Source of the DNA: Endomicrobiales bacterium
Lineage (GTDB): Bacteria; Elusimicrobiota; Endomicrobiia; Endomicrobiales; CAWCFT01
Direction of reading: 5' to 3'
NCBI GenBank assembly: GCA_963794945.1
Contig: CAWCFT010000003.1
Span: 59,473-123,472, forward strand
DNA length: 64,000 nucleotides
The position numbers and the translations under genes were made by a program. The notes beneath the pieces were generated by a model. That model worked only from the letters and a program-made list of their open reading frames with translations. It did not search any database and was not told where the DNA came from. Positions 24,893-64,000 of the stretch are shown here, piece by piece; the stretch's first letter is position 1; each line of letters opens with the position of its first letter.

Positions 24893-24902
24893 AGAAATTC
24901 CT

Positions 24903-24983
24903 GTTTCGAGTTACGGGTTTTGAGTTCCTGGTTAGGAGCCTAAAGTCTTTAAACACGAAACTCGAAACTTATAACGCGAAACT
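24903..24983. repeat. Heptamer-periodic inverted repeat element
   Basis: gtttcga gttacgg gttttga gttcctg ... aaacacg aaactcg aaactta taacgcg aaact. Confidence 0.75.
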
Positions 24984-25887: not shown

Positions 25888-25905
25888 ATTATATTATAAA
25901 GGAGT

Positions 25906-26784: not shown

Positions 26785-26796
26785 TGTAAAACCTCA

Positions 26797-26873
26797 GTTA
26801 TAAACTTTAAGCTATAAGCTGTAAGAAATTCAAAGACTTTTCTTATAACTTACAGCTTACCGCTTATAGCTTG
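26797..26873. repeat. Heptamer-periodic inverted repeat element
   Basis: gttataa actttaa gctataa gctgtaa ... cttataa cttacag cttaccg cttatag. Confidence 0.8.
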
Positions 26874-26875
26874 TG

Positions 26876-35824: not shown

Positions 35825-38439
35825 TCACGCTTTATTGGTTTTATTAAAAACTATCGTCTCGCCCGAGTAGTCGCGTTTGAGGTCGGCGGCGACTTCATCG
35901 CCTTCTTTAAACTCTCCGGAAATTATTTTTGTGGAGAGCGGGTTAAGTATCAGTTTCTGGAGAACGCGCTTGAGCTGGCCTCGCGCCGAAGGCTGGGTCG
36001 TAGCCTTCTTTCGCTATAAAGTTCCGGGCGCTTTTCGAAAGAATCAGTGTTATTTTCCTTTCACCGAGACGTTTTTCTATAAGTTTAAGCTGTATGTCTA
36101 TTATACCCTGAAGCTCGTCGGCTCCCAGCCGCCTGAATATAATGGTTTCATCTATGCGGTTTAGGAACTCGGGTTTGAAATGGGCGCTCAGCGCTTCGAG
36201 GACACGTTTTTTTATCTCGTTATAATCTGTGCTTTCCTGTATCCAGTTGGAGCCAATGTTGGACGTCATTATCACAACGGTGTTTTTGAAATCTACGGTC
36301 CTGCCCTGGCCGTCTGTCAGCCTGCCGTCATCAAGTATCTGCAGGAAAATGTTAAAGACCTCCGCGCTCGCTTTTTCTATTTCATCAAAAAGGATGACAG
36401 AATAAGGCCTGCGCCGCACAGCCTCGGTAAGCTGGCCGCCTTCTTCGAAGCCCACGTAGCCGGGAGGGGCGCCTATGAGCCGGGCAACCGAGTGTTTTTC
36501 CATGTATTCCGACATATCGATGCGTATGAGGTTCTTTTCATCATTAAACAGTATCTCTGCAAGGGCTTTGGCGAGCTCGGTCTTGCCCACGCCGGTTGGC
36601 CCAAGGAATATGAACGAGCCTATGGGCTTGTTGGGGTCAGAAAGGCCCGAGCGGGAACGGCGTATGGCATCGGATATATGTGTAACGGCCTCGTCCTGGC
36701 CCACTACACGCTCGTGAATGCGCTCTTCAAGCTTCAATAGCTTGGCCACCTCGCCTTCCATCATTCTTGAAACGGGTATGCCGGTCCACTTGCTTACAAC
36801 CTCAGCTATATCTTCCTCATCAACTTCCTCTTTGAGCATCTTAGTTTCTTTCTGGAACTCTTCAAGTTTATTGTTGAGTTTATCTATAGTTTTCTGGTTT
36901 TCGGGTATCTTGCCGTAGCGGATCTCGGCCACTTTGTCGAGGTTGCCGTTGCGTTCGGCTTTAGTCTCTTCAAGTTTGAGGCCTTCGGCCTCTTCTTTTA
37001 AAGAGCGAATCTCCGAAATGACTTCTTTTTCCTTTTTCCAATGGGTTTTCATCACGGCCGAGTTCTTTTTAAGCTCCTCAAGCTCCTTTTCCATTACAGC
37101 AAGACGCTCTTTGGAGGCCACATCGGTCTCTTTTTTAACGGCTTGGCGCTCAATTTCCAGCTGACGTATCTTCCTTTCCGCTTCGTCCAGTTCGGCCGGC
37201 ATGGAATCTATCTCTATGCGCAGCCTGGCAAGCCGCCTCATCAATTAAGTCTATAGCCTTATCCGGCAGGAACCTGTCGGCTATATATCTTGAGCTGAGC
37301 GTTGCCGCGGCCACCAGCGCGGTATCCTTTATCCTAACACCGTGATGGACCTCGTAACGTTCCTTTAGGCCGCGGAGTATGGCTATTGTGTCAGGAACGG
37401 AAGGCTCGCCTACATATATAGTTTGGAACCGGCGTTCCAGAGCAGCATCCTTTTCTATGTGTTTACGGTATTCGTCAAGTGTTGTAGCCCCCACCATGCG
37501 GAGTTCGCCCCTGGCAAGCATGGGTTTGAGCATGTTGGCGGCGTTTACCGCCCCTTCAGCCGCGCCGGCGCCTACTATTGTGTGGAGCTCATCAATAAAT
37601 AAAATGACCATGCCTTCCGCTGATTGTATCTCTTTGAGCACGGCTTTCAGCCTGTCTTCGAACTCGCCGCGGTATTTCGCGCCTGCCACAAGCGAACCCA
37701 AATCTAGCGATATAACCCGCTTATCTTTAAGGGTTTCGGGTATGTCCCCTGAAACTATGCGTTGGGCAAGGCCCTCAACAATAGCTGTTTTACCCACGCC
37801 CGGTTCACCTATCAGGACGGGATTGTTCTTCGTGCGCCTGGCCAGCACTTGTATGGTGCGGCGTATTTCGTCATCACGACCTATAACTGGGTCCAGTTTG
37901 CCGCGTTTGGCGAGGTTTGTCAGGTCGCGTGAGTATTTCTCAAGGGCCTGGTATTTTGCTTCTGGGTTCTGGTTCGTTATGGTTTGGGTGCCTCTGATGT
38001 CTACAAGAGCCTTGAGCACCGCATCCCGGCTTACGCCGTTCTTTTTTAAAACTGCCGCGGCATAGGATGAACCCTCTTCAATTACTGCCAGCAGAAAATG
38101 TTCAGTAGAGGTAAACTCATCTTTGAGTTTTTTCGCTTCTTTTTCCGCTATCGAAAAGGCCTTATTGAGGCTGTTGGAAACGTAAACCGAGCCGCCACTG
38201 ACCTTTGGTTTTTTAGCTAACTCGTTAGTAAGCTCGGTTGCCACAGCTTCAGAAAGCGGCGTTCCGCTCTGGAGCGGGGAAACCCGGTCAATAATAGTTT
38301 TAACAACGCCATCGGCCTGCCGAATAAGGGCTAAAAGCAGATGTTCGGGAAGTATTTCCTGGTGGCCGAGGTTTGTCGCGACGTTTTGCATATCGCTGAG
38401 AGCTTCCTGCGCTTTGATGGTAAGTTTGTTTGTGTTCAT
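35825..38439 (-). CDS. clpB: Chaperone ClpB (frameshifts near 37225 and 35978)
   Basis: [22 protein letters not shown]-domain coiled coil, [21 protein letters not shown](L)KR. Confidence 0.95.
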
Positions 38440-40397: not shown

Positions 40398-41128
40398 TTA
40401 TTTTTTGAGGTTTTTCGACCAGTCTTCAAATTCTTTTTTTATTTCTTCTTTCTTTTCGTCAAGGTATTTATCAATGTGGGCGATCACGCCTTCTTTTGAT
40501 TCCACTTTCTTGAGGCGTTCTTCGAGTTTTTCCTGCTCCTTAATAACGAAGCGTATGGCGTCAGCTATCGGGTCCGGCAGTTTGCCATGTTCGAGTTGTT
40601 CTATCTCTGCCGCGCTAAAGCCGAGGCCCACGCGGGCTGGCACGCCTACAGCTGTCGCTCCCGCGGGTACATCATGAATAACTACCGAGCCCGCGCCGAT
40701 GCGCGAGTTGGTTCCCAGTGTTATCGCTCCAAGAACTATAGCGTTCGAACCGACCACAACATTGTTGCCCAAGGTCGGATGGCGTTTCTTTTTCTCAGTG
40801 ACGTGCCGCCAAGAACGACACCCTTGTATATCAGCACATCATCGCCTATCTCAGCGGTTTCGCCTATCACAACACCCATGCCATGATCGATGAAGAAGCG
40901 CCTGCCTATTGTCGCTCCGGGGTGTATCTCTATGCCGGTCAGGAAGCGGGCGAAATGAGAAACGAGCCGGCCAAAAAGGAAAAACTTTGCTTTGTAAAGA
41001 GAATGGGCAAGCCGATGGAACCACAGTGCGTGCAGGCCTGGGTAGCAAGTCACTACCTCGAGCCACGATCTCGCTGCCGGGTCCATGTGAAATATAGTTG
41101 ATATGTCTTCTCTGATAGTTTTAAACAT
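40398..41128 (-). CDS. cysE: Serine O-acetyltransferase (frameshift near 40795)
   Basis: [44 protein letters not shown]. Confidence 0.93.
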
Positions 41129-43259: not shown

Positions 43260-46200
43260 ATGAAAGCACAGTTTAACTTAATCTCTAAATCAGCTTCTTC
43301 ACTTGCGGGTGCCATTTTTTCCGCTGGTAAAGAACTATTTCGCGTGACTCCCGCGAGGATTAAAAAGTGTGTGGCAGTTGTCACACTTGGGTGCTTTGTT
43401 TTTACCTCGGTGGGAAGCCAGGCGCTCCAGGCCGCAGTGGATTTCAAGGCGCTCAATGACACAGATAAAGAACGCAGGCAGACCTTTGAAGATTTTATCA
43501 TTCCACAGAGCTACGGAAGGATAACCGATGCCTGGCACCCGGAAACGGGCGGGACGAACAAGCTTGTCGTAAATATCCAGGATCTGCACTGCCACCCCGA
43601 AGTGCAGAAGAATATATCGAAGATACTCTCCTCTCTTGATGAGAAATACAAACTTAAGAACGTCTACGTGGAAGGCGGCTACGGCAGCATAAATACTTCC
43701 TGGTTGTGCGGTATAGGCAACCGAGACCTCAAAAAACAGATACTGGAAAACCTTGTTGACCAGGGAAGACTGACCGGCAGCGAATATTATTCTGTAATTT
43801 CCAGCAGGCCTGACCTGCTCAAGGGCCTAGAAGACGAATCTGTCCATAAGGCGAATTTAGTAAGGCTGGGCAAAATACTCGCAAAGAAAGATATCTATAA
43901 CGCGAAAATAAAGGAGCTCAATAAAGACCTTGAGTTCATGAAAGCAAAGTACCTTGGCGCAAAGAACCTGAGTTTCAACGAGCTCCTTGAAAAACACCGC
44001 TCCAGCGAGATACCTGCAGACAAGTATTATAAGATGCTTGCCTGGTATGTTAAAAAGATCAATGAAAACCCCGATAAGTACAATAACATCCTGCCTGTCA
44101 GCATGGATAACTACCCGAACATCAGCACATTCATTGAGCTCAACCGCATAGCCAAACAGATGAATTACAGGGACCTCACCCGGCAGATGCAGCAGTACAT
44201 GCAGTTCCTCAGGTCAAACCTGCCCTACAACACTTATAATTCTCTTATTGAAAAGACTGATAATTTCAAGAAAATGGATGAGCTATATATCTATCTCGCC
44301 AGGCTCACAAAAGATAACAATATTAACCTTGACGCCAAATTCCCGGAACTGAAAAAACTGTTCGATTACACCGAGAAGAGCCAGGACATAAACCCCATAA
44401 AACTTATCGATGAAGACAAACGGCTGGTTGAAGAGATAAGGGTGGGACTGTCGCGCAACACAAGCGAACTCGATGTGTCTTTTCTAGCGGATTTCTATTC
44501 TTACTTCCAGGATTTCCTGTTCAACAAGCTTTCTGCCGACGATTATGAATATTTCATTCAGAGGTTCGATAAGTTCAAGTCGACCTGGGGCAAGTACACG
44601 TTCAAGAACAGGATCTCGAACCTCAACGACGATTTCAAGCTCCTTAACGATTTCTACCACGCGAACTGCCTCAGGAATGGTTATTTCATAGATAACATAG
44701 CTGAGCTGAATAATTCAGTTCAAAGTAAAGACGTAAAAACCCCGAACCCCGAACCTTCAACCTTGCGCACAACTATCCCAGAGTTATTAAAAAACTCTGA
44801 AATCGTTGTAATAGTTACCGGCGGTTTCCATACCGAAGGCATCAAAGGTTTGCTCAGAGAAAAGAAAATATCGTACGTTACCATAACACCGAACGTTACC
44901 CAGGATACAAGGCTTTCCACAGAGACCTATTCAAAACTTGTCAAAGACCAGGCGGCAGCTATAGAAAAGCTTAAAACCGGCCAGTTCATGGGGGCGATAC
45001 TCAACAATTCTCTGGCACTGGAGCTCGCTTCCAATATGTCATCACGCGAGATGTTCGAGCTCGCCATAAGGGCCGCAAACAGGGCGATCAAACAGGCCGG
45101 GCCAGCCGACAGGGTAACAATAGTTGAAGAAATAGAACACAATACCGGAGCAAAGGCTGCTTTCGATGCCAATAGCGGGGTCATTACATTCGATAACGGA
45201 GCTCAGGTAAAACTGGAAGAAAACAATGGCGTGATAGAAGCTAAGGGGATAAAACTCGTCAGCACTGTGTCTAATGCGGTTACCGAGGCTACGGAAGAGC
45301 TGGTAAACGTGAATGAACTGGAATATGAGGTGATCAAAGGCGATGCCTATCATATTTTCGAGAAAATATTAAAAATCGCGTCAGAACATTACCTGTTGTT
45401 TGGAAACGGCTTGATATACGAGCTAGAAAATGACCCTTCGCTAAAGCCTCTTGAAAAAATAGACGGAATCGAAAAAGAGATATTAAGCAGGCTCCCGGAC
45501 TTTGCCCAGCGCATAATAGCCGAACGCGAAAGAAGGAATATCGACCTAAATAATGAAGTTGGCCGTTCAGTTTGGCTTAAAGCCCTTCTGGCGGTTGACT
45601 TGCTTAGAGAGTATATTGTGCCTGTCGCAGGCATAAGCGGCACGGAAAATAATGGGATATCGACGCTTGACACCATATTCAACGTACTGAACGGCAAGGA
45701 AATTACCTCTGCCACCGATGGGGCCGGATACACCCTTCTCCTGCAAAAAAGCAAAGTGAACCCAAATGCCATCAAAGTAAGGTTTAGGAGAGATAGCGAC
45801 GGCGCGATATCTAACCTTGCTGTCTTGCTGAGCGTGAAAGACGGCATGTTCGACTTCGACGCGCTTTTAGGGTTGGTTGATTTTAATTCCGGGAACCATC
45901 CGGAAAATTCAAGCATGGTGAACCTTGCAGGACAGAGGCTCGTCCCGCAGATTTTTGACCATCTCTCTCAGTGCCTGCCCGAAGGCACGGTTACTTCACC
46001 GATATCTGTTAATAATACGGCAACTCTGGAATTTATAGCCGAGTCATGTTACATAAAAGACGGCAAGCTGATGTATATACCGGAAATATTAGTTGACAAT
46101 AATGTCACTCATAAGGAGCCGGATGCCGCCCGAGACCTTACAGTTGTCGCGACAAAGGATGAAGAGGGCCGTAACCCTTCGAAATATATATCGGTATCCA

Positions 46201-49200
46201 ACATACTCGCCCAAACACAGATAGGCCGCCTTATGCGCCACGCCGGCTTTACCGAGTTTTATATTACTTCCCCGGGCCAGCGTGCAGAGGAATTATATTA
46301 CTTTAAAAGCATAGTCGGTTCAAAAAGCGCTAAATCCGGCAAAGACATTATGGATACAAAAAGCATAAAACTTACCGCGGTTAAAACTCCGGCAATTTCC
46401 GGAGGCGCTAATGCCACTGATAAACTGTTTGAAGACACAAGTATGCTTCTTAAAGAATATGACAAGGGAGAAAACAGCCGGATATCCGGGTTTATCCCTC
46501 AGTGGAATGAGATCGTAAGAAGGCTGAAAAGTTCTCATCAAAGAAATAACCCCTCAGTTACAATATACGGCCATACACGAATTACTTTAACCAATATAGA
46601 GCCTGTGCTGGAATCGCTTATAAACAGTGGCATGATAAAGCCGGAAGACAAAAAAGAGGCCGCGAGTTTATTGCGCATTGTGATGCTGCTCCATGACATA
46701 GCAAAACCTCTCCTTAAAAACGGGGAAAACCATGAAGAAGCGTCTGCCATTGAAGCCGCGGGTATTCTTGCCGGCAAATATCCCAAAGACAAGCTGGATC
46801 TGATAACGAAATTAATAAAATACCACGCGTACCTGGGCATGCCGAACGATTATGAAGACATAATAAAAACTTTCGGGGAATTTTCAGACAAGGAAATACC
46901 TATTTTGCTGGCGGTATGGCTTTGTGATGTTTCAGGCAGGCCGTTTGTCGGCGGCAGGATGAATACCGATATGCAGACAAAAAAGGTAGAGGCATGGTTA
47001 AACGCGCGCAAAGGCATTGACGCGCCCAAAAACCTTAACTATATTAAAAATATCGCGAATAATACTAAGGTTATAAATTCTGCTACATCTTCATTTTCAT
47101 GGCTGGAACGCGATAAGATATGCAGTAAGCTTTATGATAAACTTGGCAGCGGCCTGTGGGAAAATAACTATGACAAAGAAACGATCAGCGCGCTGGTAAA
47201 AGACAGCCCCTTGAGCGCCGGTGAACAGACACTTGCTTTGGGGGTCAATATTCAGGCATGCATTGATGAGGCGCTTTTAGCCGCGGGCATCACTCAGGCG
47301 CAGGAGCTGCAGGAGCTGGCGGTTGCTGTTGAACAGGCTATGGTATCAAGCACGAAACAGAATGCAAAAACAGATGGTTTTAATAAATTTAGTACCAAGC
47401 TTTTGCTTAGTGTAGTTGACCTTAATGAAGAATTTGAAAAAAGCGAATTAACTGATGTTATATCGCTGGAAGAATTAAAACAACATTCAGCAGGTGTATG
47501 CACAATCAATGAATTTTTGGAAAAAGTTAGCCAGGGACAGATTAAAGGCATAGGGCCTTTAAGGGAAATAACAGATGATGCATTTGCACTTAATTATGTC
47601 GAAGGCATAGAGCAAGATGGCGCTAAAGGGTATGCGCTGGGTTTAGCAAGTGTCTATTATGATGCCTTATGTCTTGCGTGCGGGATGAAGCATTACAGAT
47701 TTTTAACCAAAGCATTCTGGAAGACACGCAGCCTTAATAAAATCGGGCCTGATAAATGGATAGAAAATCAGATGAGTTTTCTAATGGATGAAATGAAAGG
47801 GCAGAATGAGAGTTGTGTGGTATTTGTCCCTAGTTCAATAAATCATTACAAAAAAGAAAGAACCAGTAATGAGATATTATGGTTATTGCGTGCAAATAAT
47901 AGAGATAAAATAAAAAATATATATTTCGTATTCGGTACTTACAGTGCATTCGGCAAAGAAATGCTTTTAAATTCTGACAATTCGGCAATAACTATCAAAC
48001 TTAGTGAGAAATTTGCCAATGAAATATACACCGAATATAAATCAAAGACAGATGTAATGATAAATCATTCTGCAGGAAAAAATAGTGAAGTTTCTTTTAT
48101 TGAGCAGGCATTGGTTTTAAGCCCAAAACAGCTTGAAAAAGCCGCGGGTTTTGGGGATCTTGAGCAAGCCCTGAATGCCCAGACAGGCAAGAAGGTGGTC
48201 ACCTACAAATCAAACGGCCCGGCGGGCAGTATGCTGATAGGCGGTAAGGCGTTTGGCTTCGCGAGCTATAACCCAACAAGTGATGAATATATGGTGAGCG
48301 AAGGCTTCTGGGAACATTTCCAAACAGATGCCGAGCGCGGCGCGGTGCTCCAGCATGAGAAGAACGAGTATGACTGGTTGAAATCTAACCCGGGAAAGAC
48401 ATTTGAGGATTACCATGATTATCTGAAATATGAAGTAGAAAAAGCAAATAAGAATATAGTATTTTTTGAAAATCATAATGACATACTTCCCTACCTGAAA
48501 GAAATAACAAAACAAAATAAGCCGCCTTTAGTCATTAATTTTGACGCTCACAGGGATTTCAACGGGGCCGTGCCCGCGCTATTTTGGATAAACGTAGCAA
48601 AGCAAACGCTGGTTGCCCAGAACGTCATAACCTGCCCGCGAAATTGGGATGACCAGAGCGAATTAATAGCCAAACTGATAAAAAAGGCGCAGAACGCCGA
48701 TGTGCCAATTGTGATCAGTTTCTGTTTTGATTATTTTTCGTTGGGGCACGATAAGCCGGGGCAGTCGTTTGCTGGTTCGTACCATCATTCAATAGAACAG
48801 GTTCAAGCCGATATAAACAAGATAAAAGATTTTCTTGAAAAGAACGGTGTTCATCCGGCCTCGGTACTGTCATCCATTTCAAGGCCTTATCTTTATTCTG
48901 CCAAGGCAGATGACAAATATGTGCGGCTTGTGGAAGCTGAGATACAAAATCAATTTATAACGCGTTCAGACACCGCGATAAACGAAGAGCTGGCGGTTCT
49001 GAACAGAGCCGAAAGCCTGCTTAATTCCGCGTTAAAAGACTGGCAATTCCACAAAACCCCGCAGATATCTGAAATCCTTTCCCAAATAATCCCCGGTATT
49101 GAACTTGCTGAAAATATAACAATAAATCACATAGTCAACGCGGAAGCCGAAAGACTACAAAAACAACTGAACGAGGCCAGTTTTCAGAAGCATGATATTA

Positions 49201-52200
49201 TTAATAAGTTCACCCCATTGGGCGACTGGCTCAAAACTCTTGGCATTGACTTCAATGTAGACAGGATTGGGGATTATATATTTAAAGACCAGGTTCTTGC
49301 TGGATACGAAGCCGCATATAATAATTTCAAGAAAAATCCAGGAAGAATAACGCAAAAACAGTACGCTGAAGCTACCCGGCATTTGCTTGAAAAGATGATA
49401 ACGCTCAGAAAAGACGTGCACTCTGTCGAGGCCGGTAAGGTCCGAACCCAGTGCCTGGAACTGCTTGATACCGTTATCATGACACTCTCGAATTCTATCG
49501 ATACTATTGAAATGCGGGATTTAGACCTGGCCCAGGCCCTGCCCATGATAGTTGATGAAAAGCGCGGTGAATATGAAAAGGATAATGTATCTATCAATAT
49601 TTCAATGGGCAGTATTTCGAGCCTGCCTGTTAAAAGTAATCAACTCATCATTGACCGTATCATTGACAATCTTATAAGGAATTCAATTACGGCCTTTAAG
49701 ACTGATCAGCCGGGAGACTACCTGGCTAACGGCAGAATACTGAACGTCAAGCTCAGTTTTAAAAATAACAGCGCAGTAATAGAATACGATGACAACGGCC
49801 CCGGCATTCCCCAAGAATTTCTGGGTAAGATATTCAAGGAGAGGGTAACTACTACCGATTCCGGCGAAGGTACTCATATAATCGCCGCGTTCGTTAAGAA
49901 AATGAACGGCACAATAGCGGCTGAAAACAAAACAAACGGTACCGGCGCCAGGTTCATCATTGCTATTCCATTTGTTTCCCAAGAAACAAGCAATGAAAAT
50001 ATTGATAATTCCAAGCCTTCAAATATTGATATTCCTGAAAAAGGCTTTTTTGACCTTTATGGCGAAACTACCGGGAAAACGGAAATATTGCGGCAGCAAG
50101 GCAAACAAAGAAGGGAATTTTTGAATTTATTCAGAAGCATGTTCCCTGCAGGTGTAAAACAAACAGTTTTCTACCCTCTCTCCCGCGGGGATATTTCAAC
50201 GGCGCTCGAAATGACCAATGCCGACACATTCATTTTCGCTGATAAGCTTCCTTTTATATATACGGGCAGTAACCCAGATAATGAGGATTACGCCGCTTAT
50301 TTGAATTATATTAGAAAATCCGGTTGGTCTGAAACGAAATTTAATACGCGCAATCAAATGGGCGCATTTGACTTTATCTGTTGCGAGCTGGAAAGGGTTT
50401 ATGGGGTTGACCGCAGCAGAATAACTGTTACTGCCGAAATACACGCGCCGGGTTCCGTTCCGACATTACATGAATGGAGTGCGGACGACCGCAATGGCCT
50501 TATGGACGCCTATGGGAATATCAACAGTAACCGGTTCGTTATCAAATTCCCTTTGAACGGCAGTGAAAAAACCATTATCTATCACAATGTAACCCTGCCT
50601 TATGAAGGCCAAACAATGAGCCCTGAGGATGAAGATAATTTTACACCACCTGGAAAAAGATTTAAAGGAAAACGGGCCGGTTAATTGCGCTATTTTTAAA
50701 GCTTTTTATTTCAATGATGGTAAAGGCGATAAGAACCGAATGTCTTCGCGTTATCTTGATATGATAGCCAGAAGCCTGACGCAAATGGCATCATTGTTTG
50801 TAGTGATAATGATTATGAGTACAATTGGAAGCCTTATAAAAACAAAGCATTGAGTAAGCTGGGATTTCTTAACCCGCTGATAAGAAAGATTCGCAGTTAT
50901 GAGCGAAACGGTATTTATTTTTCATATAACGAATTGCCGACTCAGGTAATAATGAAGTCAAAGTCAAATACTGCACAAATTCAGCCGTTTGGATTTTTAA
51001 ATAAAGCAGTTGAACAAGGAATAAATAATGATCTAACTCTGCACTTTGATGCCAAAGGTGTTAAGACGCTTATGCGTATATACAGCGAGGCTGTGGCCGC
51101 TGGTGTCACGCATGAAGCTATTATGGATGGAATACGAAAAATCAACGCGTCCAACACGAACGAAGTTGTTGACTGGACACAGTTTGCCGGCGCGGCAGAA
51201 CATCTTATGCAGGATGGAAAAAGTATAAGCCTTCTAGCGTTCAACGAATCTAATGAAGTTATCGGTTATCTGGTCGCGCGTGAAAAAGGTAATATTAATT
51301 TCATTGCGGTTGACCGTAAATATCAAAAGTCAAACGTTGGCAAACAAATGTTCAGCGAATTTGTAAAAGAGGCTCAAGCGCGCGGTTTACGGCAGGTGTC
51401 GGTTGACTATCGCGATAACCGTGAAGAAGCGGCATTTTACCGCTCGCTTGAAAAGCAGTATCCGGTCATTGAGAAAAATACAGGCGGGAAATACTTTAAC
51501 GGTGACCCGATGACGGTGGTCGCATACAATATCGAAAATATTTCTATTCCTGCTGCCACGCGGGAAAACAGCGGCAATAATCCGGACACAGATAAACTTA
51601 ATAGGGAAGAAACGGGGAATGTTAAGCCGGGCATAAATATTCCTCAGAAAAACCTCTTTGACCTCTTCGGCGAAACTACCGGAAAAACTGAATTATTGCG
51701 GCAACAAGGCAAACAAAGAAGGGAATTTTTAAATTTGTTCAGAAGCATGTTACCTACAGGCGTAAAACAAACAGTTTTTTACCCTCTCTCCCGCGGGGAT
51801 ATTTCAACGGCGCTCGAAATGACCAATGCCGACACATTCATTTTCGCTGATAAGCTTCCTTTTATATATCCTGACAGTAACCTTGATGATGAGGATTACG
51901 CCGCTTACCTAAATTATCTTAGAAGGATCGGATGGTCAAGAACAAAATTTAACACGCGCCACAAAATGGGGGCGTTTGACTTTATCTGCTGCGAGCTGGA
52001 AAGGGTTTATGGGGTTGACCGCGGTAAAATAACCCTTACTGCCGAAATGAACGCACCCGGATCCGCTTCAGCACCGCAAATATGGAAAGCGGACGACCGC
52101 AAGGGTCTTATGGATGCCTGCGTTCATGGCAACATTAACCGGTTCGTTATCAAATTCCCCTTAAACGGCAGTGAAAAAACCATTATCTATCACAATTTTA

Positions 52201-55200
52201 CTCTGCCGTATGAAGGCCAGAAAATGAGCCCTGAGGATGAAAATAATTTTAACCGCCTGGAAAAAGACTTAAAGGAAAACGGGCCGGTCACTTGCACTAT
52301 CTTTAAGGCTTTTTATTTTAATGAAGTTATTTCCGACAAAAATAAACTATCTTCGCGCTATCTGGATATGATCACCGAAAACCTTGCCGCGAACGGCATT
52401 ATCGTTTGCAGCGACAAGGACAATGAATACAATTGGAAGCCTTACAAAGTATTGAACGAACTGGGCTTATTTGATCCATTGATAAGAAAAATACGCGGCT
52501 ATGAAGATAATGGTATTTACTTTTCATATAAAGAATTTCCTGTTCAGGTAATGATAAAACGTGAAGCCGCACAAGTTCAGCCGTCCGGGTTTTTAGATAA
52601 ACTGGTGAGTAAAGTATGGCAGCCTATTCAGGAACAGCAAGTCAAGCTTGAAACCAATATCGAGCCGGTTCAAAAACAAAAAATAGATAAACAAAAATTG
52701 AATGAAATTGATAAAGATGAAATTGCGCACTTTATTGATAAAACAAAGGGCGGCAATGGATTATTTAATTACTCAAATGAAAGCTTAATAAAAGCCATTG
52801 TTTCAGGCCCGAAAGCCTATATGCTCAAATTCGGTTATACTGCGGCAAGGCTTTTTGCTGAGTATGGAATTCTTATCGTTTTCATTCCTGTATTTTTATT
52901 CCAGCACAGTTTAATAACGGCAGGCATCAGCGCTTTGGCATTTGCGTCTATAATTTCGCTTATCAGTATGATAAATGTCAAAGGCATAATGTTCCCGTTA
53001 GTAAATAAGATAAGCATATTTGAGAAATATAATGAAAATATGAGGCGCATGGCATTGACTCATGAACTTACCCATCTTAGTATGCGAGCGTTAGGAAAAA
53101 CAGCTTATGTTGCCAGCTATATGCACACAATAAGATTAATGGAATTGGGTTCAGTGCCGGCTATGTCATATTTTAAAGCCATGGAAATTGTCCGCAACGT
53201 ACCATTAGAAAATGTTCAGGGATATATATCGGGTATAGATACGCCAAAAAGCAAAGCATGGCGCTGGTTTTTCGAATTTAACGGCGAACCATCATATGGC
53301 CGCAAGCATGGTACATTGCTGGCAATAATTGCCGTTGATATCCTGAAGGATCTAGACAAAGCATATATTGTCGGCACGTATCTTGCCGCCGGGAAATCAT
53401 TTAGTGAAGCATTAAAGTTGGTGAATTATAAAATAAAAAGTGAAGTAAAATCTAAAAACAAACCCCACGCCGGTTTCTGGGCCGAGATGCTTGGGGGATT
53501 TTTCGCTCCCAGTGATAATGCCAGGACAGCAAGGCTTAAGGCGCTGGCAGGCAGCAGGCAAACGCCTGTAAATTTTATTAAGAAGATCGTTGACATTGGC
53601 GGCAGCAAGGTGCCTGTGCATTTTACGGAAACTTTCCGGAAACGTTTGGAAAATCAAGGTAAAACAATGCAGGGCTTTATTAATGAGAGTATATCCATCC
53701 GCGGCCCGGACTATGCCAAGCGTCTTGAAACAGGCCTTAAAAACAAACCCTACCTTATAATAGATACGCTTGCCAAAACCCCCAACCTGTACGGCAACTG
53801 CTTAAATGACGGATACATGTATGTAAACGAGAACGCGTCGGAAGAACTGGATGTGCTGGGTGTGTCCCACGAACTGATGCACGAGGCCGGCCTGTTCAAC
53901 GAGTCCCCGGAAAGCGAATTAGACCTTCAAAAACTTGACCAGGAAATCCTTGCCAAGCGCCCGGATCTTCTGGAAGTTATAGATAATCTTTCCGCAACCG
54001 GAGTAGTTAAGTTAATAGAACATGACGCCAATGCCCAGAGCAAGCCTGATATTAATCCCGCGATAGGGAATCCCCCGGCGCTTACCGAAAGGGCCGCCAC
54101 AACAGATAAAAGCCTGGCCGAAATTCCCCAAAATAGATCATCTGGGTATAGATACACCCCGACCAAATGGGACCTGCGGCAGGTTAAACAGTATCTGCAA
54201 TATGCCAATAAAAAAATACCCTGGAGAAAATTCATTAAGGATGACCCGGAAGGAGCCGTGAAACTGCTTTCTGAGATCGCGAAAGAATCTAAGATTGAAG
54301 ACAATGACCCCGGCCAGTTGATGGAGCAAGATTTTAATAAACTAATTTCGCTATGGGGTTATCCCCAGCGGAGTTACTATTCTTTGATGACGGCTGTTTC
54401 TACGTTAAAAAAGCTTAAGCAACAATTGGGCATCGTTGATACCAGTTGGAAGCGCCGGAATGATAAAAACCAGACAGAGAAGCCAAAGAAGAACAGTGAT
54501 AATAACGCTACTGACCTTAAATGGGACCTGCAGAAGGTAAAACAATGCTTGCAGTTTGACTATAAAAAAATACGCTGGAGAAAATTTCTGAAAGATGACC
54601 CGAAAGGAGCCGTGGAACTGCTTACTGAGATCGCAAAAGAATTGAATATTGAAGGCAATGACCCCGGCCGGTTGACCGAACTGAACTTTAAAACAAAAAT
54701 TTCGCTATGGGGATACCCCCCGCGTAGCTACAATGCGCTGAGTTCAGCTATTACGTTAAAGAGACTTAAAGAAAAACTGGGCATCGTTGATACCAGTTGG
54801 AAGTACGGGAAAGAAAGGTATGATAAAAAGTTAGGCGGGAATGCGCAGGATATTCCCCAGGGCGGCATTCTGAAGAGGCCCCGGCCTCAAAAGAAACCAG
54901 CATCAATCCGGCAGGGCAGGAGGCCGGTGCCAACAATACCAAAGGCTCAGGCAAAAGCGCAAACGGCGGCATAACTTTGAAATGGCTTCGGCCTATCTCG
55001 ATTTTGGCCATGTTTATTCCATATTTTGCGAATGCGCAGGCATGGAGAGGACAGAACGCTGAAGCATTTTTGAATACTGATATTCTCGTGAGTGAATATA
55101 CCGAAAGAAACCTACAATCAGAGCAGCGCGCGCATGATTCTATCTTGGAGGCGAACTTACCTAAGTGGAGAAACCTCATTATAGCCGGTCCCGAATCGCC

Positions 55201-58200
55201 GGAATACAACTGCATAGCGTTGAGTATCGGCAGGACAGATTGTGTATTAGATCCCGCGGAGACGCTAGAAGCCGCGGACGTTTTCTACCGCTGTTTTGGC
55301 TATAGTGTTTGCCAGCAAAAGGGCGCGGCTGTAGCAGTTTTCGCGGACGGCGAAATACCCCAGCACGCGGCAGTTTGCCTAGGCAACGGTATGTATGAAA
55401 GCAAATTAGGTGCCTGGGAGCTGGTAATTCACAAGCTGAGTGATTTTATAGGAACCCCCTATGGGCAGGTAGCGCGTTTCTACAGCAAGGATGACGCGCC
55501 TGCCGAAGCCCGGGTAGCGTATTGCCTTAAGGCGCTGAAAGAGGCGCAGAAAAATAGTGCTGCCGCCGCGGAGAGCATTCTTGGGGTGCTCATGGAAGCG
55601 GCTCTTGTAGGCAATGATGTTGCGTTCCAAACACTCAAAGCAGTCGCAGATTCAACTCTTGAACCGTTCGGGGTTGATGTTTGGAAGAAGCTGGCCGGTA
55701 AACTGCGGGAGACAGATGTTTCAAAAACACCTGAGGGCCTTGAGGGCATTAACATACCAGAATCCGGATTTATGAGTTTGTCCGCTGAACATGCTGAAGC
55801 AATGTTAAAAGGTTTGGGGTATACTGAGATAAACAACTTGGATTGGATGAAACTTTTACTCAGAAGCACCCTTAAAAAAGCAGGCATACAGGGGTTCACC
55901 AGCGATAATCAGCTGCATATACTCTCGGGCCATCAGCTTGAAAACGGAAAGGAATTGGCCGCGTTCGCTTATGATGCTAAAGGAACGCCTCACTTGTATA
56001 TTCATATATCTTTACTGATTAAACACACTAAGGAACTGCCTGAGGGAGAACGCATACTGAACCGATCAATACGCCCTGTGCTTCGCAAAGCGATGACGCG
56101 CGAACAACTGGCCTCACCGCGAGGGAAGCTAACATTGGCCGGCGCTGACTGTTCGGAAGTTTTGACTGGGCTGCGCTGATAGAAGAGGCGGTTTATGCTA
56201 ACCCGATGTTCACAATACCGCATGAAACCCTGCCTGACATAAGCTATAATAGCGCTGATTTTTTACTGCGCGCGCTGGGATTCAGCGAAACCGATGATTA
56301 TCTTCATCTCATTAAATCTATTATAAAGAACTTCGGCCTTTATGGAGAGATAGAGTCCGCGGAACAGATACATATTCTTCGCGGATCTATAGAGAATGGC
56401 CAGGATTGGAATGATGAACATCAGTTTGTCACCTTCGTTAAAGATACGGACGGCAATGTCCACATTTACATACACGAAGAGTTTCTCAAAGCTTGGGACA
56501 GAAAGGGCCTGCTTTCAAGCGCGCTTGCCCTGGCCATAGCCCACGAATATATTGAATATAAGCTGATAAATGAACATAAAAAAAACCCTGCCGAAGCTCA
56601 CGATGAAGTTGAAGCTATGGGCCTGAGCATAATATGGTTGGATAAGCAGGTTGCGGATGGAGCCTCTAATCACGAAATCCAGGATAGAATAACACAAATC
56701 GTAAGAAATTGGTTAGGTAAAACCGAAGAAGATATTGTTGAAAATACAGTGAATTCTGCGGAAATAGGTTCAGTTAATTCAGGGCCTGATGCCGATGCCG
56801 GTTCGGCTGGCGCCAATTTAACTCCTGAAGACATAATGGATATGGTCAGGAATGCCGGCAATCAAGAAGATAAATTATTAAAAGTTATTGAAAAAATAAA
56901 GAACAGCCCACCCATTTTATCCAGCACTAAAGTTAATATAAAATCAGTAACGGAAGCGCGCAAATACATTAACTTGATAGTAAGGGCGCTCATCGCTAAT
57001 ATTATACCTACAAGCCCGGATGAACAGGACAGGCGATTATCCATTGCCTGCGCATTCGTTCTTGAGAAAATAACCAATGGCAATATGCGTATCCTAAAAG
57101 CCAACAGGAATGTTCACTACAAGATAGTTATGCCGGGAGATGACACAAGGCAGATCTCCAAACTACCGGACTTCGTTCCTAAAAACCCAACGCACCAATT
57201 GAGAGTTGTAATTTCAGCCCAGCAGTATCTGCTCACCCCGGCAAATGATAAAGAGGTTAACCGCGCCCCGGGCCTTTCCGAAACAGAATTGGTTAGATTG
57301 CAGCAGCCTGGCGCTGACAATGTTTCTGCCAATGCCAGTTTCTCGCAGCCGCCTGACATATTGTTGAGGGAACTGATAACCGAAATGAAGATGGCCCTGG
57401 TTGCCTTGCGCACCCGGCCTGACGGCGTGGTGGTATTCGGCAGTGTCCGCATTGATAAAGAAAGCCCTCTTTATAAATTAAGCGTTGAGTTGGGTGAAGA
57501 ACTGCACAATGCAGGTTATGCGATTATAACCGGCGGCGGGCCTTCAATGTCGGAAGGCCCGATGAAGGGAGCCGGAGGAAAGAACACATACGCGGTAAAT
57601 ATTGTCGTGCGCTGGGAGCAAAAGCTCAATCCCTTTGTTGAAAATGCGATAACCTGTAAACATTTTGTCACGCGCAAAATGATACTGAACAATAATACTA
57701 TCTGCGCCGTTTGTATGCCGGGCGGTTTCGGCACAATGGATGAATTGTTTGACGTTCGGCGCCTGGCGAGCCCATAGTTCTATTGGGCAAGGATTATTGG
57801 GAGCCTATCATTAAGTCAATAATCGATGCCTGGAAGCGTGAGGGATGGGCGGTAGATTCAGCTGATATGCCTTATATTACTGATGATGTATCCGATGCCG
57901 CGGCATATGTCAATTACGCGCGCAATAACAGGCAGGTCCCGCGGATGACTGAAAGCGCCATTGCCAAGGCGATCTATGAGCTCGAAGCCGGCATGGCATG
58001 GCTGAAACAATTTCCAAGCGCTGTAACGATATTGGGCCATTCTTCGCCAAATAGCGCCGATATGCAAATTATGCGGGATACTCTTGAGGGCCTTGCCGGC
58101 CGAAAAGAGCCTGTATGCGTTTCCATGCCTGAGATTTACGAACTGGCGCGTGAAATTTATGGCAAATCCGGATATGAACGCCTGGTGCGCGGCGTCTTAT

Positions 58201-61200
58201 TGCAATCGCCTCAAAATTCAAGGCGCTACCAGAACGATAAACAGGTAATGCTGGTATCATCAGTGCAGAATTATCATGTGCTTGTAACTGAGAACTCGCA
58301 CGCCTTTCTCGCTTTGCCCGGACAGATAAAAACATTCAGTAATTTATTTGATATTCTGGAAGTGATACACACCTATAAAATATCCCCACATCCGATAATC
58401 CTGATTGGCAAAGGTTTCTGGCAGCCGATTAAAGATATCATGACGAATAAAATGCTTAATGGCGTGCCAGGCAAGCAGTTGATCGACCAGTCCGACCCTG
58501 ATCTTCTGAAGGTTGCGGGCAGCGCCGAAGAAATATTTAATTATTTGTCAGCCGCAGGTAAACCGGAACAGAAAGAAAGCGCTTACCTTGGCAAAAATAC
58601 AATTGAACAAACCTCGCGAATACAGGCAGTCCTGCAAGGCCTTAAGCAGGCAAGCGCCGGCCAGGTTCAACTGCTTGCGCTGCTTTTTAGTATGTCAGTC
58701 AGTGCTTCCGACAAGATACTCGCGCTTTTAACCGGCAAAGGGCTGTCCGATGAAGAGCGCGCCGGGATCGCCGTGGAAGACGTGACAGATCAATTTGCCG
58801 GTATAACAACATTAATAGAGCAGGACACAGAACTGAAGCAGGCGCTGAATAAATCTTATATCACCGGCATCGAAGTATGGAAAACCCCGTATTCTATTTA
58901 CGGCAAAGACGCCTACGCGCTCGCTACTGTAGAAGCGCGGCGCTGAACATGAAAACGTGTTAATTATCGCTGAGCCGCTTGCCGCCTGCTTGATCCAAAA
59001 GTCGCCGCAGGAGCGAAAAAACCTTCTTAAAACCTTATTTGAGCACGAGAAGGATGAATGGACGGCATTGAATGACGAAACCGACCCTTTATACAGGGAT
59101 CTCGGCAGGTTCATAGAGTGGTTCAACAAGAAAAATGGACAAATAGCGGTGGAACTGCTTAACCGCGATTCCGGCGCTTTCCATGAATATATAGATTATC
59201 TTGCCAATTCCAAAAACAGCATAAACAGGGACTTCGGTATTGAGCACAAAGAGTTTATCGGCAGGGCTCCACCGCAGGCTGCATTACTGAAATTCGCGCA
59301 AAAACAGCGGACGCTGCGACGCAGCACGCGGTCAGCAGGCCATCCAGCGACGAAATACTGCTGGAGAATTATTTTAATGATCTGGAGAACTGTAACGGAA
59401 AATTATTCGAGCGTTTAGCGAAGAGGATGGAGAGGGAGCGCGCGGGCCTGCCCGCGGAGGACGTCCGCGCCGGGCGCGCCGCCGTTGTGCAGGAACTCCT
59501 TTCATTCATAGGTGAAAACGGCAAATTCGCACCCAAAAACTTTTCCCGCTACGGCTCCGCGGTAGAGGCAATAAACAAACAAGTACAGGCCGCGGTGAAC
59601 GCCATAAACTCCGACAATGAACCGGCCGGCACGACCATTCTAGTTGCCCTCGCATTTACAAACATCTACGGCATTCTTTCGGACATCGAACAGGAACGCC
59701 TTGCCCTGCTTAAGACGCTTAAGATTCCGCCTTTAATCAAAAAGAACGGCATGATAGAAACTCAGCAGACTCGATATATGAACCTTCCGGGCACGGACAG
59801 GCCGGTGCGCGCCCGTTCATATAACAAGAGTGAGACTGTATGGGAAGCCGGCTGGATGCTGGACCATATTATAGACAGTGAGATCGCCGAAGTGAGGCGT
59901 ATGCGCTCGCAAGCTGATGAGTTGGGCGAGATCGCGGCCCTGATCCGTGAACGGCTTACAGCCGGCGGCGCAACAAAGCTTAACGATGAGGATAAAGCGG
60001 TTATCCGAGCGCGGATACAGTCGCTTATCGCGGGTGGTGTTCAGCACCCGCTGGACACATCAAAAGTATCCGCGCGCAGAATGCTTATTACGGCGCTCGA
60101 AATTCTTTCCACAACGGAGCACGCGCCAACAGCGCTCTCGCACATAGAAGGCGCCCGGCAGAACGCTCAGCAGAGAGAACAGACAGCGCGCGTTATTATC
60201 GCGAAACTGCAGGAAGGGCGGATAAAGGCGTTTCGAGACAGGATCAGAGAACGGGATAAATATGTAAAAGACAAAGCTGAATACGCGCGCAGCAGCTATA
60301 ATAAAATATACAACAGCATTACGCCCGGGCCGCTGAAATAGAACGGGCCAACGCGCTTGACGCGCTTAAAGACATTGCGAATTATCCTTGGATAAAAGGC
60401 GAGCCGGACTACCGCGATATATACGGGGTTCTTTTCGGGGACAACGGCCTGATTGCCGAAGCCGGCAAAAAAACCGAAAAAGAAATAAATGGAATTTATG
60501 ATAAGTTTCAGTATCTCATATCGTTCCCGAACAACGCGAACCAGCTTGACGAGCTTGTTGCCAGCTATCGGGATGCGCTTGTAGCTAAAGAACTCCAATC
60601 GGCCGTGCCTGTAGACCGGGCCGCCCTTTTTGAGGAAATATTCGCGTCTTTCGTTAGCAAATATCCCCGCGTGTTTGGCAGTGGTAATATCAACGCCGAA
60701 AAGAATCGCGCGCTCTGGCGGGCTAAGTTCTATCAGGCTGTTAACATTCCTCTTAAAATAAAAGGCCCTAAAAAAGCTTCTGAAAAAATCGCCAACCCGG
60801 CTTTTGATGCCGCGTCAACCTATATCAAACTGCTTTCATTTAAATCCATAGAAGATGTCATTGAAAGAAAGAGAGTTGTAAAAGACCTTGATACCAGCCT
60901 CGAAAACACACAAGCTTTACTTAAACAACTTAATTCAAACCCGGATAATCTAACCGCCTACCGCGATACGAAATCAGGAAAAGATATTTCTATTCACGCG
61001 CTGAAGCCTGCGAATTTCGCGAGGCTGATGGAAGCAATCATCGCGGACTATACCGCCCGCTTTTCGCTTGACGATGACGGCGCCGCTCTTTTGCGCGCTA
61101 GCGTTGCCGCAGAGCAAAACGGCAGCGGAAAACCGCCGTTGGATGATATCCGCGGCCTCATCGGTATATCAATTAAAACTTCCATAAGGCAGCTGCTTGA

Positions 61201-64000
61201 ACTTTCCGGGATAGAAAAACCGCTTCAGCTGATGCATGAGGTTGTTAATGCGGTTAAGAAAGTTGTTTCGCCAGATAAAAAAGAATTAAACACTGATGAG
61301 AGGCAGAAGTACAAACAGAACGAAGAAGCCCTCTCCAGGCTGACAGGCCTGAATGTGGCGACATATAAAGGCGGCGCATTTGGCATGAGCATGCCTCTCG
61401 GCGGCGGTGACTACGGATTTGCCGCTTATGACGACGTAAAAAATGAATACCAGGTTTCGGAAGGTTTCTGGGGCGTATATAAGACTGAGGCCGAACAGGC
61501 CGCCGCGTTAAAATACGTTCAGAACCAGAATAAATATCTTGCCGAGCACACTGAAAAGGCGCCTGAAGATTACATTACATTCGTGCATGAGCAGGCTCAG
61601 GATGGCAATATACACTATACAGATGAGGACGCCGCGATAGACGCCGCGTACAAAGCCCTCGGGCCGGCGTTATACGAAACGCGTTTTAGCTTGACTGACA
61701 GTTTAAGGGAAGCCATTTCTGCCGCCGGCTGCGCGCTTAGCGGTTTTGCTCCGGAATCTGAAGTTTCGGCCGGCCTTATCGCAGATAATATTTGGCATGC
61801 CAACCGCATAGCCAAAATAAAAAGGAACATTGTTCAGCGCCTTGAAACCGCGCGGAAGAATGGGAAATTCGGCAACTGTTTTGTGGCCATTGAATCTAAA
61901 ATGTTCGGGCTTTCAGGCGCCAAGGGCGGCGGCCAGGGCTTATATATGAAAGAACTGCCCAAAGTGCAGTCACAGGGAGGCATAGCGTCGTTTGTGGTCA
62001 CACCGTTGTTCTCGAACAGGATACGTTCAGTTTACGGCGACCTGAAAACATTCCTCCGCAAAACAGATTCAACCGTGCTTTTTGATATTTCAGTTCCGGT
62101 GGGCAACGGCAGTATACCGCTGAAGGTTATTCATTCCGATGACGGCGGCGTGCCAACCCTGTCTCTATATGACGAGTCAGGCCACTTCTTTAACGAATTA
62201 TATTCAAACCCGCACCCTGAGTCGCTCGGCGGATACCTAGAAACGATCCTGCTCTCGCAGGCAGCGCTTATCATACAGGACAAGCTTGGCGTCCAATTCG
62301 AATGTTTCCATTTTAACGACTGGCAGACAGCGCTGGGCCCCGTTTATATCAAGGAAAAGTATAGGAACAAAAAATGGCCGCTTGGCTTCAGGCCGGCCGC
62401 GGTATTTACAACCCATAACCTTGAATATCCGGGCGCTTATATGGGCAAGATGGAACTCGATTACGATCCGTTCATTGAATACCTGTTCAAACACGGTGTA
62501 CTTGGCATCCACCGGACCGAGAACGATCTCTGGATGAACAGCTATTACCCTGGTTACGGAAAGATAGTTGTTGAACTTTTCAAGCTCACTGGCTTAAGGA
62601 ACGAGCTTAGGGACGATATAGAAAATGGGCTTGAGTTCAATTCTCAGCCTTTTGAAGGCCGCCACGCACTGATGAAAGGCGGGTTCATTGATTCTGACCG
62701 GGTTGTTTTTGTAAGTGACGGGCACCGCGAAGAAGCCATGACACCGGCGCGCGGTTTCGGGTTTGACGGCCTGCTGCGCCGGCTTTCTTATAAAGTAAAA
62801 TCCATATACAACGGCATCATAGAAAACCAGCACGAAGCAAAAAGCCTCGATGCTCTTAAGGTTGATGGATTCACCTCGGAAATAGGCGATGACCCTATAG
62901 CTTGGAAAGATGCCAACAAAGCTGCGCTGCAGAAGAAGCTTAAGTTTGAGGTCAACTCGAACAACATTGTAATCAGCATGATAGGCAGGATGGTCAAGCA
63001 GAAAGGCTACGATGTGCTGTTCGCTCCCCTGTACGGCAAACCGCTTATAGAGCATTTACTCGATTACCGCGACCCGGTAACAGGCGGGAGGATACAGCTG
63101 GTAATACAGGGTGCAGCAGGCGATGATCTCGGTTTATGGGTGGAAGGCCAGCTCAAGGGGTACGAGACGCGCTACCCCGGACAGCTGAGTTATACTGACC
63201 ATGTAGATGCTGTGCTTGCAAAACAGATGCGGGCGGGGGCTGAGCTGGGAATAGTGCCTTCTGTAGACGCACCGGCGGAACTTGTTCCGCAGGAAAACGC
63301 GAAACTGGGCTGCCTTAACATATTAACAAACCGCGGCGGGCTTAAAGACTGCAAACGGGACAGTGGCAGCCCGTTCAGCCTGGTGTCAGGTTTTGAAAGC
63401 GGCGACAGTCACGAAGCGTTGTGGTCCCGTATTCAGGCGGCCAATGAAATATTGGATATAGTAAAAGGCTTCTTTCCAACACGGCGCGATAAGGCCGCCT
63501 ATGGAAAAATGCTTAAAGATATATTAAACAGCGGTTTCGACTGGCTCAAAGACGGCAAGGTTGCAAAGTATGAACAGCTTTACGGCGAAGCGATACGGCA
63601 GGCAAAAGAGGAATCCGGCTACATAGAACAGAACAAAAATGGGAAGCCGAACGAAGCCGATGACGTAAAGGCCGCTTCCTGGTTTGGCGGCAGGTGGCTT
63701 AAAAACGCGCATATATGGGAAACCTTGATATCTTTAGGCTTACCCGCCGCCTATGTAATTGTCAGGATTGCCCTGGCGCATTATGTTCCGTTCCAGGTAG
63801 TTGGAAATACGGCAAAACTATGGTATCTCGGGTTGTTTTCACTCAGCAACACGTTCGTAGCGCTTTTGATATTCAACTCAGGGCATTTACTGTCTCCTTT
63901 CGGGCGAAAGATGTTCCTGAAAAACGAGTTATATATAGTTATGGACAAAACATTTTACGCCGGCGCCGCGCTTTATGCCGGCCATAGGCGCGGCCGCTGT
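43260..64000 (+). CDS. Giant multidomain secreted protein (>6,900 aa, runs off the window), interrupted by about 8 apparent frameshifts
   Basis: Successive + strand ORFs abut or overlap, usually with the next frame already open upstream. Breaks near 50640 and 50775 are repaired by the internal duplicate copy, and the break near 57765 falls inside a LOG domain. The last frame is open from about 60330 to the window end. Confidence 0.75.

Follow-up and report, generated by a model that had tools for sequence, protein, structure and literature searches.

In this work we have analysed a 64,000-nucleotide (nt) stretch of the genome of an Endomicrobiales bacterium (assembly GCA_963794945.1, contig CAWCFT010000003.1, positions 59,473 to 123,472), called the window below, and in it the region 43260..64000 on the plus strand. 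The original prediction had joined nine open reading frames (ORFs) of this region through small indels into one reading frame of at least 6,900 amino acids (aa). We are highly confident that the nine frames are a single giant gene, of which the region holds the 5' part with at least 6,900 codons, and it is as good as certain that this gene belongs to a large, unnamed paralogous family of Elusimicrobiota giants. The explanation which best combines our findings, and which we hold with moderate confidence, is that of one gene broken by indels and built on the layout of this family, with a TIKI-like head at the N-terminus followed by variable cargo.

The continuity of the reading frame carries the first part of this finding. 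All nine plus-strand ORFs were found again with the coordinates first reported for them. Read from stop to stop, each next frame is already open before the preceding one closes, and the overlaps at the eight breaks measure, in order, 65, 94, 148, 31, 25, 14, 175 and 37 nt. The junction zones lie on the plus strand at 50620..50684 (frame 0 to 1), 50760..50853 (1 to 0), 54827..54974 (0 to 2), 56149..56179 (2 to 1), 57753..57777 (1 to 0), 58933..58946 (0 to 1), 59244..59418 (1 to 0) and 60305..60341 (0 to 2); at all eight the frame changes, and there is no in-frame stop among them. The joined chain has about 6,938 codons and is still open at position 64000. Three of the eight junctions, 50684, 50853 and 57777, each cut one protein. 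Self-comparison revealed an internal duplication of about 355 aa, the second copy of which (51540..52613, plus strand) is a single intact frame, while the first (49959..51017, plus strand) is 64-74% identical to it and aligns only when read in frame 0, 1 and 0 again. Since the intact copy aligns across both breaks, those at 50684 and 50853 are two compensating shifts within one protein. The break at 57777 interrupts the first of two LOG/SLOG domains: the match to TIGR00730 (positions 3-116 of 178) ends at the junction, and the motif PGGFGTMDE is encoded upstream of it and PIVLLGKDYW downstream, in the following frame, a succession which we take to be the usual LOG layout. Both sides of 57777 also match one and the same frame of a paralogue on contig C6, with match starts (125718 and 125334) that differ by 384, or 3 x 128.

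The one-frame claim of the original prediction is borne out in this way, directly at three junctions, and we infer that the remaining five also lie within the gene. The restriction of direct homology support to three of eight counts against our reading, as does the finding that no close orthologue bridging the other five was present in the collections searched. When all pieces were compared by tblastn and blastp with the loci of 80 relatives and with 150 representative proteins of the family, only the head and a module of about 90 aa were matched, and a search for longer orthologues among proteins of 4,331-5,000 aa gave no match. For the piece that carries Pfam DUF7689, a search of 60 genomes from the same order came up empty, and in a large protein collection it matched only itself. 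Indirect support for one of the five junctions, 56179, comes from a ~90-aa module that occurs on both of its flanks (55754-56017 and 56215-56487).

Could the pieces be an operon of eight or nine separate, abutting genes? Each of them has some ATG, GTG or TTG near its beginning, as such genes would, but three junctions cut a domain or the duplicated module, and in relatives a single frame can be as long as 12,027 aa. The original prediction had treated an own ribosome-binding site for each ORF as the mark of separate genes. A Shine-Dalgarno-like motif at -20 to -5 was seen at none of the eight candidate internal starts, compared with 517 of 1,396 long ORFs genome-wide and a background of 311 in 3,800 random 16-mers; the giant gene's own start also lacks one. 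The first start codon of the last piece comes 264 nt past the preceding stop, with no stop in its frame over this distance. The third frame ends in ...AQTAA, which a profile built from genuine C-terminal tails of the family does not pick out as a tail. We regard separate genes as extremely improbable.

We further asked whether the breaks in this single gene are errors of the assembly or real mutations, and we think it very probable that they are errors. The eight or nine breaks would be single-base indels of a noisy, probably long-read assembly and not gene boundaries. Three ordinary genes on the minus strand of the window have suffered the same fate, those of ClpB (frames 37150-38439 and 35943-37244), an aldehyde dehydrogenase (28497-29387, covering profile positions 37-295, and 28123-28545, positions 365-436) and a hexapeptide-repeat transferase (40736-41128 and 40398-40772). 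Each of them is split into two overlapping frames; the assembly carries indel errors in ordinary genes too. The genome bin contains seven giant chains in all, with 47 breaks between them, 46 of which are frame changes and one an in-frame stop; this proportion speaks against mutational decay, which should yield nonsense codons as well. Four of the five chains that end within a contig finish with the family's conserved tail. The number of break-like ORF pairs per 100 kb was 36 in this genome outside the giants, 25 in the flanks of the relatives' loci and 25 inside the giants, counts which fit a general error rate and are too noisy to prove a uniform one. We also weighed alternative genetic codes and programmed frameshifting but gave them up, since the frame changes occur in either direction and have affected housekeeping genes as well.

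If the frame shifts were real, this copy would be a decaying pseudogene of the giant family, and some observations do weigh on that side. The window gene is broken once per ~2.4 kb, compared with a single break in the 24 kb of the paralogue on contig C1. A single public read run turned up, which contained 0.08 of the sampled words; compared with window positions 44001-64000, it gave 13 small contigs. Twelve of the 13 were at least 99% identical, and among the matches listed no indel against the window appeared. Moreover, with seven paralogues one could be lost without cost. The eight contigs listed from this run bridge no junction; this deprives our reading of support that they could have lent, and it also makes the run uninformative on the breaks. 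Against decay stand the absence of in-frame stops here (none in eight, and one in 47 across all chains), the housekeeping genes broken in the same manner, and the catalytic motifs, which are intact in the HD, kinase-ATPase, LOG and GlgA-like domains. A pseudogene seems improbable to us, and we continue with the reading of a gene broken by assembly errors.

The family to which this gene belongs was recognised by its N-terminal module, the head. All seven giant chains of the bin share it; they have 5,190-11,954 codons each and together take up about 181 kb, or 6% of the bin. Besides the window gene, they lie on contig C18 (15572-3, minus strand, and 24235-60098, plus strand), C6 (151541-122613, minus, and 151792-175773, plus), C4 (363064-331234, minus) and C1 (231764-207769, minus). 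The two giants of C6 are divergent, with starts 250 nt apart, and one of the six paralogues has an unbroken frame of 6,762 aa. The first ~560 residues of the window gene are common to all six. When one genome per prokaryote species was scanned for a pattern, 163 relatives came up, and 80 of these were kept: 77 named as Elusimicrobia or Endomicrobia, two named as Candidatus genera with no phylum given, and one labelled Bacteroidota. The frame is unbroken to the end of the locus in 57 of these 80 and reaches at least 3,850 aa in 22 of the 57. Whole genomes contain unbroken frames of 12,027, 11,603, 10,988 and 10,958 aa, and there is one of 9,030 aa in a single-contig genome (G027).

At E<=0.001 a profile of 33 head sequences, the window copy included (A2), matched 8,737 representative proteins, and with the cut-off set to E<=1e-30 there were still 3,903. 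In nearly all of the best 150 representatives, which are up to 7,833 aa long, the head is at the N-terminus. The profile was found in 51 of 151 sampled genomes of the phylum (46 of the 137 of high quality) and, within one family of the same order, in 32 of 44. At least nine scored A2 matches are frequent in genomes of about 2 Mb; in one genus, small genomes yielded fewer matches or none at all. The original prediction had expected homologues with a common N-terminus and different cargo, and this is what we see: about 500-560 aa are common, and the cargo varies in all members examined. It differs in 12 of 12 relatives, where we found APH, TPR, Metallophos, GH94, AAA_5, glutamate dehydrogenase, cNMP-binding, GA modules, PPDK_N and LPD3, and again among 12 complete members (LMWPc, Pkinase, MTS, HATPase_c_2 and HD), in which most of the sequence is unannotated.

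The head follows a signal peptide. The original prediction had described an extended signal-like peptide, and here the signal peptide stands, whereas its extension probably does not. In the six paralogues a hydrophobic core, closed by a site of the A-x-A type, follows the start after at most seven residues. The probable true start of the window gene is GTG 43344, from which a Sec-type signal peptide is read (43344..43433, plus strand; MTPARIKK, the hydrophobic core and ALQA|A, with the bar at the predicted cleavage site); the ATG at 43260 would add 28 residues. Because GTG 43344 reproduces the layout of the paralogues, the signal peptide is probably canonical and the start at 43260 an over-extension. 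In the best 150 representatives, too, the head nearly always begins at residue ~25-80, behind a signal-like sequence.

The head itself (43434..44955, plus strand) has an alpha/beta core that is interrupted by a helical insert of about 290 residues. The window copy is 27-53% identical to the other 32 members and matches A2 with an E of 1.3e-221, a value that is partly circular since this copy is one of the 33 profile sequences. Asp53-x-His55, Glu83, Arg417 and His469 (A2 numbering) are invariant in all 33. In the window gene the first two belong to an invariant Asp-Leu-His (43581..43589, positions 53-55), a candidate catalytic motif comparable with the E-x-H of RRSP; the Glu, 28 residues after the His, is encoded at 43671..43673, the Arg at 44673..44675 and the His of a GGFH motif at 44829..44831, all on the plus strand. 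As this set is kept, the head is probably an active hydrolase, either a protease or an esterase, so far as conserved residues can tell. A model built from the A2 alignment (mean predicted local distance difference test, pLDDT, 84.3; predicted template modelling score, pTM, 0.78) places the core at residues ~31-134 and 459-489 and the helical bundle between them at ~138-430.

The model leads us to suggest, with moderate confidence, that the head is a hydrolase of the TIKI/Ere type. Like the group of TIKI, TraB-PrgY, erythromycin esterase and ChaN, it would have, by its model, an alpha/beta core with a parallel sheet in which a His directly follows the first strand; further points of likeness are the Glu 28 residues after this His, the conserved Arg and the second His, which stands in a motif of the G-x-x-H type. 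In that group, several proteins are extracytoplasmic. According to the accessible text of PMC6254334, the catalytic set of the TIKI domain in the MARTX effector RRSP is E3900/H3902/E3930/H4030 plus R4001, and the catalytic residues of Bcr135 are H85/E113; the spacing of 28 in the head equals that of H85/E113 and of H3902/E3930. A Foldseek search of the model against the PDB gave no match at E<=0.001, with EreC and Bcr135 among the weak top matches. In an all-against-representatives structural alignment, TIKI-superfamily chains, as named in the accessible part of the same paper, ranked within the top 14. The head differs from this superfamily in the inserted bundle of ~290 residues, in the first acidic residue and in the lack of a sequence-profile match. 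Two of these differences weigh against the assignment: the first Glu of the 2His/2Glu set is replaced by Asp53, and the Pfam models for TIKI, Ere and TraB matched none of the 33 head sequences at E<=10. Pfam scans of the 33 yielded only weak helical matches, e.g. DUF1722, and a profile search of the sequences of solved structures returned rows at chance level only.

Downstream of the head we looked for other features common to the family. A Kyte-Doolittle scan predicted two transmembrane hairpins in the window gene, each of two adjacent hydrophobic segments, at 52833..52985 and at 63722..63874 (plus strand); between the signal peptide and the first of them, over ~3,100 residues, there is no comparable hydrophobic segment. 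The relatives mostly have hairpins too. Two HExxH motifs were found on the plus strand, HELTH directly after the first hairpin (53061..53075) and HELMH at 53868..53882. Across 149 family proteins there are 72 HExxH motifs where shuffled sequences gave 4.55 (maximum 7), a 16-fold excess. In 15 tiles of the window gene, the metallopeptidase matches that Pfam gave were no more than faint (E 0.23-0.34). In two other family proteins, P0009 and P0104, membrane-embedded modules with His/Glu motifs were noticed by eye, and the stretch after the head of P0104 resembles an intramembrane protease of the CAAX/CPBP type.

Complete members of the family end in a conserved tail, ...[ILM]-L-x-A-[AG], for example ILSAA, MLAAA, ILTAA, LLGAA or MLGAG. 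This tail was seen in 67 of the best 150 representatives, one of which is the window gene's own first piece, by chance; among the 46 representatives that reach 3,000 aa, 37 have it, and so do 15 of the 23 closed frames of the relatives' loci. The bin's own chains end in AILEAA, EILTAA, CLGAG and IITAG. Wide conservation is confined to the last ~40 residues. In the window gene the 3' end is missing because the contig (C3) stops at window position 64000. The bin, with 2.9 Mb in 19 contigs and a completeness of 86%, yielded no continuation of the gene on another contig. The frame at the start of contig C13 was tried as one and rejected; the open frame there resembles a different, repetitive protein. 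An orphan tail of the family type (...NTMGIASAG) closes an ORF on the minus strand of contig C11 at 161481, 1 kb from the contig end. It may be the 3' end of the window gene or of the minus-strand gene of C18, which also runs off its contig.

Between head and tail lies the cargo. The claim that normally cytoplasmic enzyme domains are chained in this one protein agrees with the Pfam and NCBIfam results. These confirmed a histidine-kinase-type ATPase (HATPase_c, 49644..49973), two tandem LOG domains (57427..57830, the one cut by the fifth junction zone, and 58215..58544) and a glycosyltransferase resembling glycogen and starch synthases (61880..63586; Glyco_transf_5 and the C-terminal half of TIGR02095), which is the glycogen-synthase-like domain of the original prediction, called GlgA-like here. 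Pfam also confirmed a GNAT acetyltransferase domain (51192..51443); all these lie on the plus strand. Other proposals fared less well. For the HD domain (46617..46841, plus strand) the dipeptide is present at 46692, but the Pfam score is marginal, 19-21 bits with a cut-off of 22. Of the two supposed methyltransferase-like copies, the duplication is real and corresponds to the 355-aa repeat described above, whereas for the methyltransferase assignment an Atlas search with the duplicated module gave no more than a weak lead. The UPF0489/arginase-like domain was not recovered (E 0.12). The stretch once called papain-like (55181..55483, plus strand) is Pfam DUF7689; its single-sequence fold, with a pLDDT of 50, was too poor for a structure search. 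Self- and family comparison also revealed a module of ~90-110 aa at 48123..48455 (plus strand), repeated at 61310-61609. We observed it as well in the C4 and C18 paralogues and in the unrelated family members P0025, P0032, P0095 and L023.

How might such a protein work, and on which side of the membrane? The family layout would be a Sec signal peptide, a head of ~500 aa, a variable chain of enzymes with hairpins and HExxH motifs, and a tail ending ...L-x-A-A or A-G. We hypothesize that the N-terminus crosses the inner membrane via Sec, that the hairpins keep the chain tethered, and that the head hydrolase, the HExxH sites or both cut the chain into working enzymes, which would then act at the cell envelope or on neighbouring cells. 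Export combined with processing is a tentative proposal, to which we give somewhat less than even weight. The idea of an exported or host-delivered effector cassette, as first put forward, found no support in the analysis; with at least two predicted transmembrane hairpins, the protein would be at least membrane-tethered. Several points tell against export and cutting. Enzymes that depend on ATP, acetyl-CoA or ADP-glucose make little sense outside the cell; a crude hydropathy scan is all that the predicted topology is drawn from; Lys and Arg abound at the hairpin flanks, so that the positive-inside rule would place the flanking enzymes in the cytoplasm; and the HExxH region of the window gene has no detectable homologue in the local family set.

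Much of this would be accommodated if the signal-like helix and the hairpins served only as anchors and the enzyme chain were a tethered scaffold on the cytoplasmic face, with the head alone at most in the periplasm. The cofactors needed by HATPase_c, GNAT, LOG and the GlgA-like transferase are cytoplasmic, and the charge of the hairpin flanks agrees with such a scaffold. In its available portion, a 2026 preprint on Omnitrophota (10.64898/2026.06.07.730766) reads 46% of long proteins as having transmembrane segments only, with cytoplasmic domains. However, there is the stretch of ~3,100 residues without a hydrophobic segment between the signal peptide and the first hairpin, and the N-terminal signal-like sequence is kept in every family member examined. 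As hairpins do not change sides, a working signal peptide would leave the HD domain, the kinase-type ATPase and the GNAT domain outside. The cytoplasmic scaffold is the main rival reading; we consider it less likely than not, and give it about the same weight as export with processing. The boldest form of the latter, in which these are Sec-led polyproteins whose TIKI-type protease head and zincin sites cut a shuffled chain of kinases, phosphatases, acetyltransferases, nucleotide-processing and glycan enzymes into effectors for the cell surface or neighbouring cells, and whose L-x-A-A end is a signal for sorting or degradation, is a speculation with a rather small chance of being right.

The closest likeness to what we describe is found in the giant 'multi-enzyme' proteins of Omnitrophota, reported by West-Roberts et al. 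2023 (10.1101/2023.11.21.568195) and in the 2026 preprint. As far as the accessible text of these sources goes, both groups come from uncultivated bacteria with small genomes and consist of very long single ORFs, mostly unannotated in sequence, whose products have signal peptides and/or transmembrane helices, predicted ones in the Elusimicrobiota family; they can be likened by their Pfam repertoire (HATPase_c, GNAT, Lysine_decarbox/LOG, starch synthase, AAA_5 and PPDK_N), and the same puzzle over cleavage and the membrane side of the enzymes arises in both. They differ in phylum, in length (up to 147 kaa in Omnitrophota and 3-12 kaa in the Elusimicrobiota family) and in their ends, with N-terminal C39 or S8 peptidases there, judging from those same portions, and a TIKI-like head and ...L-x-A-A tail here. 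An enrichment of Elusimicrobiota in proteins >5,000 aa has also been noted, in the available passages as counts of proteins called uncharacterised (PMC11573180; West-Roberts 2023, section 5; PMC12057145). The window gene is one of these giants, and the survey text that was accessible contains no head, tail or HExxH enrichment. In the papers searched (preprints without their supplements), we found no description of the head, the tail or a TIKI link for Elusimicrobiota giants, and the main text of an mBio 2024 paper on Endomicrobia does not mention giant proteins. The statement that such a cassette had not been functionally described therefore needs dividing: within the accessible parts of these sources, giant multi-enzyme genes have been reported from Omnitrophota and counted in Elusimicrobiota, whereas for the architecture of the present family the statement holds.

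The original prediction had also pointed to MARTX toxins and phage polyvalent proteins. Polyvalent proteins, in the accessible part of Iyer et al. 2017 (PMC5512222), likewise join many unrelated enzymes in one polypeptide and have zincin-type HExxH peptidase motifs, which are proposed to release units from the chain by cleavage, and their associated domain LPD3 occurs in one relative of the window gene. They are, according to the same part, borne on mobile elements, delivered together with DNA and mostly directed at DNA or restriction targets, and the term 'signal peptide' is absent from the main text of that paper; the Elusimicrobiota family is chromosomal, multi-copy and Sec-led, with small-molecule and protein-modifying enzymes. 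The 15 tiles of the window gene gave no PADLOC match and no PHROGs match of a structural kind, only generic kinase, acetyltransferase and SLOG matches. MARTX toxins are characterised by glycine-rich repeats, export by a type I secretion system (T1SS) and an inositol-phosphate-activated cysteine protease domain, and RTX repeats and this domain had no Pfam match in the tiles at E<=1. MARTX toxins resemble the family in being giant proteins with an array of enzymes, in their case effectors that a built-in protease releases; one of these, RRSP, belongs, in the accessible text of PMC6254334, to the TIKI-family endopeptidases.

One could suspect a polyvalent protein of a phage or conjugative element, or a toxin of the MARTX type, from the chained unrelated enzymes with HExxH motifs, from LPD3 in a relative and from the TIKI-family domain, a known MARTX effector according to that text. 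The tiles, however, revealed no hallmark of either, and instead of virion, type IV secretion system or T1SS features the protein has an N-terminal Sec-type signal. Its neighbours are ordinary chromosomal genes, and seven copies are present in this genome and at least nine in those of relatives. That the gene is of such a kind is, in our opinion, hardly credible.

We conclude from these comparisons that the window gene is one more giant multi-enzyme gene of an already reported kind, its fragmentation being very probably an assembly artefact laid over a real gene, which annotators should repair and not interpret. What has been gained is a set of handles, namely a probable-hydrolase head with a testable Asp-His/Glu/Arg/His site, a conserved tail, the 16-fold HExxH excess and at least nine scored matches per ~2-Mb genome. 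The function and cleavage of giants become testable on a domain of ~500 aa, possibly in cultured relatives if these carry the family. If Sec-led, self-cutting polyproteins were indeed what these genes encode, several per cent of small Elusimicrobiota genomes would be devoted to the family, and MARTX toxins and phage polyvalent proteins would have in it their chromosomal, cellular counterpart.

No conserved upstream neighbour of the giant gene was found. Its neighbours in the window include genes for a response regulator, a ZIP transporter and ClpB, as well as an operon of the Bat/MoxR type. This operon (19916-27871, minus strand) encodes BatD, two VWA/BatA proteins, a DUF58 protein and a MoxR AAA_3 ATPase. 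At 32650-34698 (minus strand) there is a gene for a 682-aa protein with a FlgD-Ig domain and a C-terminal sorting domain of type IX secretion (Por_Secre_tail). An IS110-family transposase is encoded at 13016-14089 on the minus strand, 29 kb upstream of the giant gene and not adjoining it.

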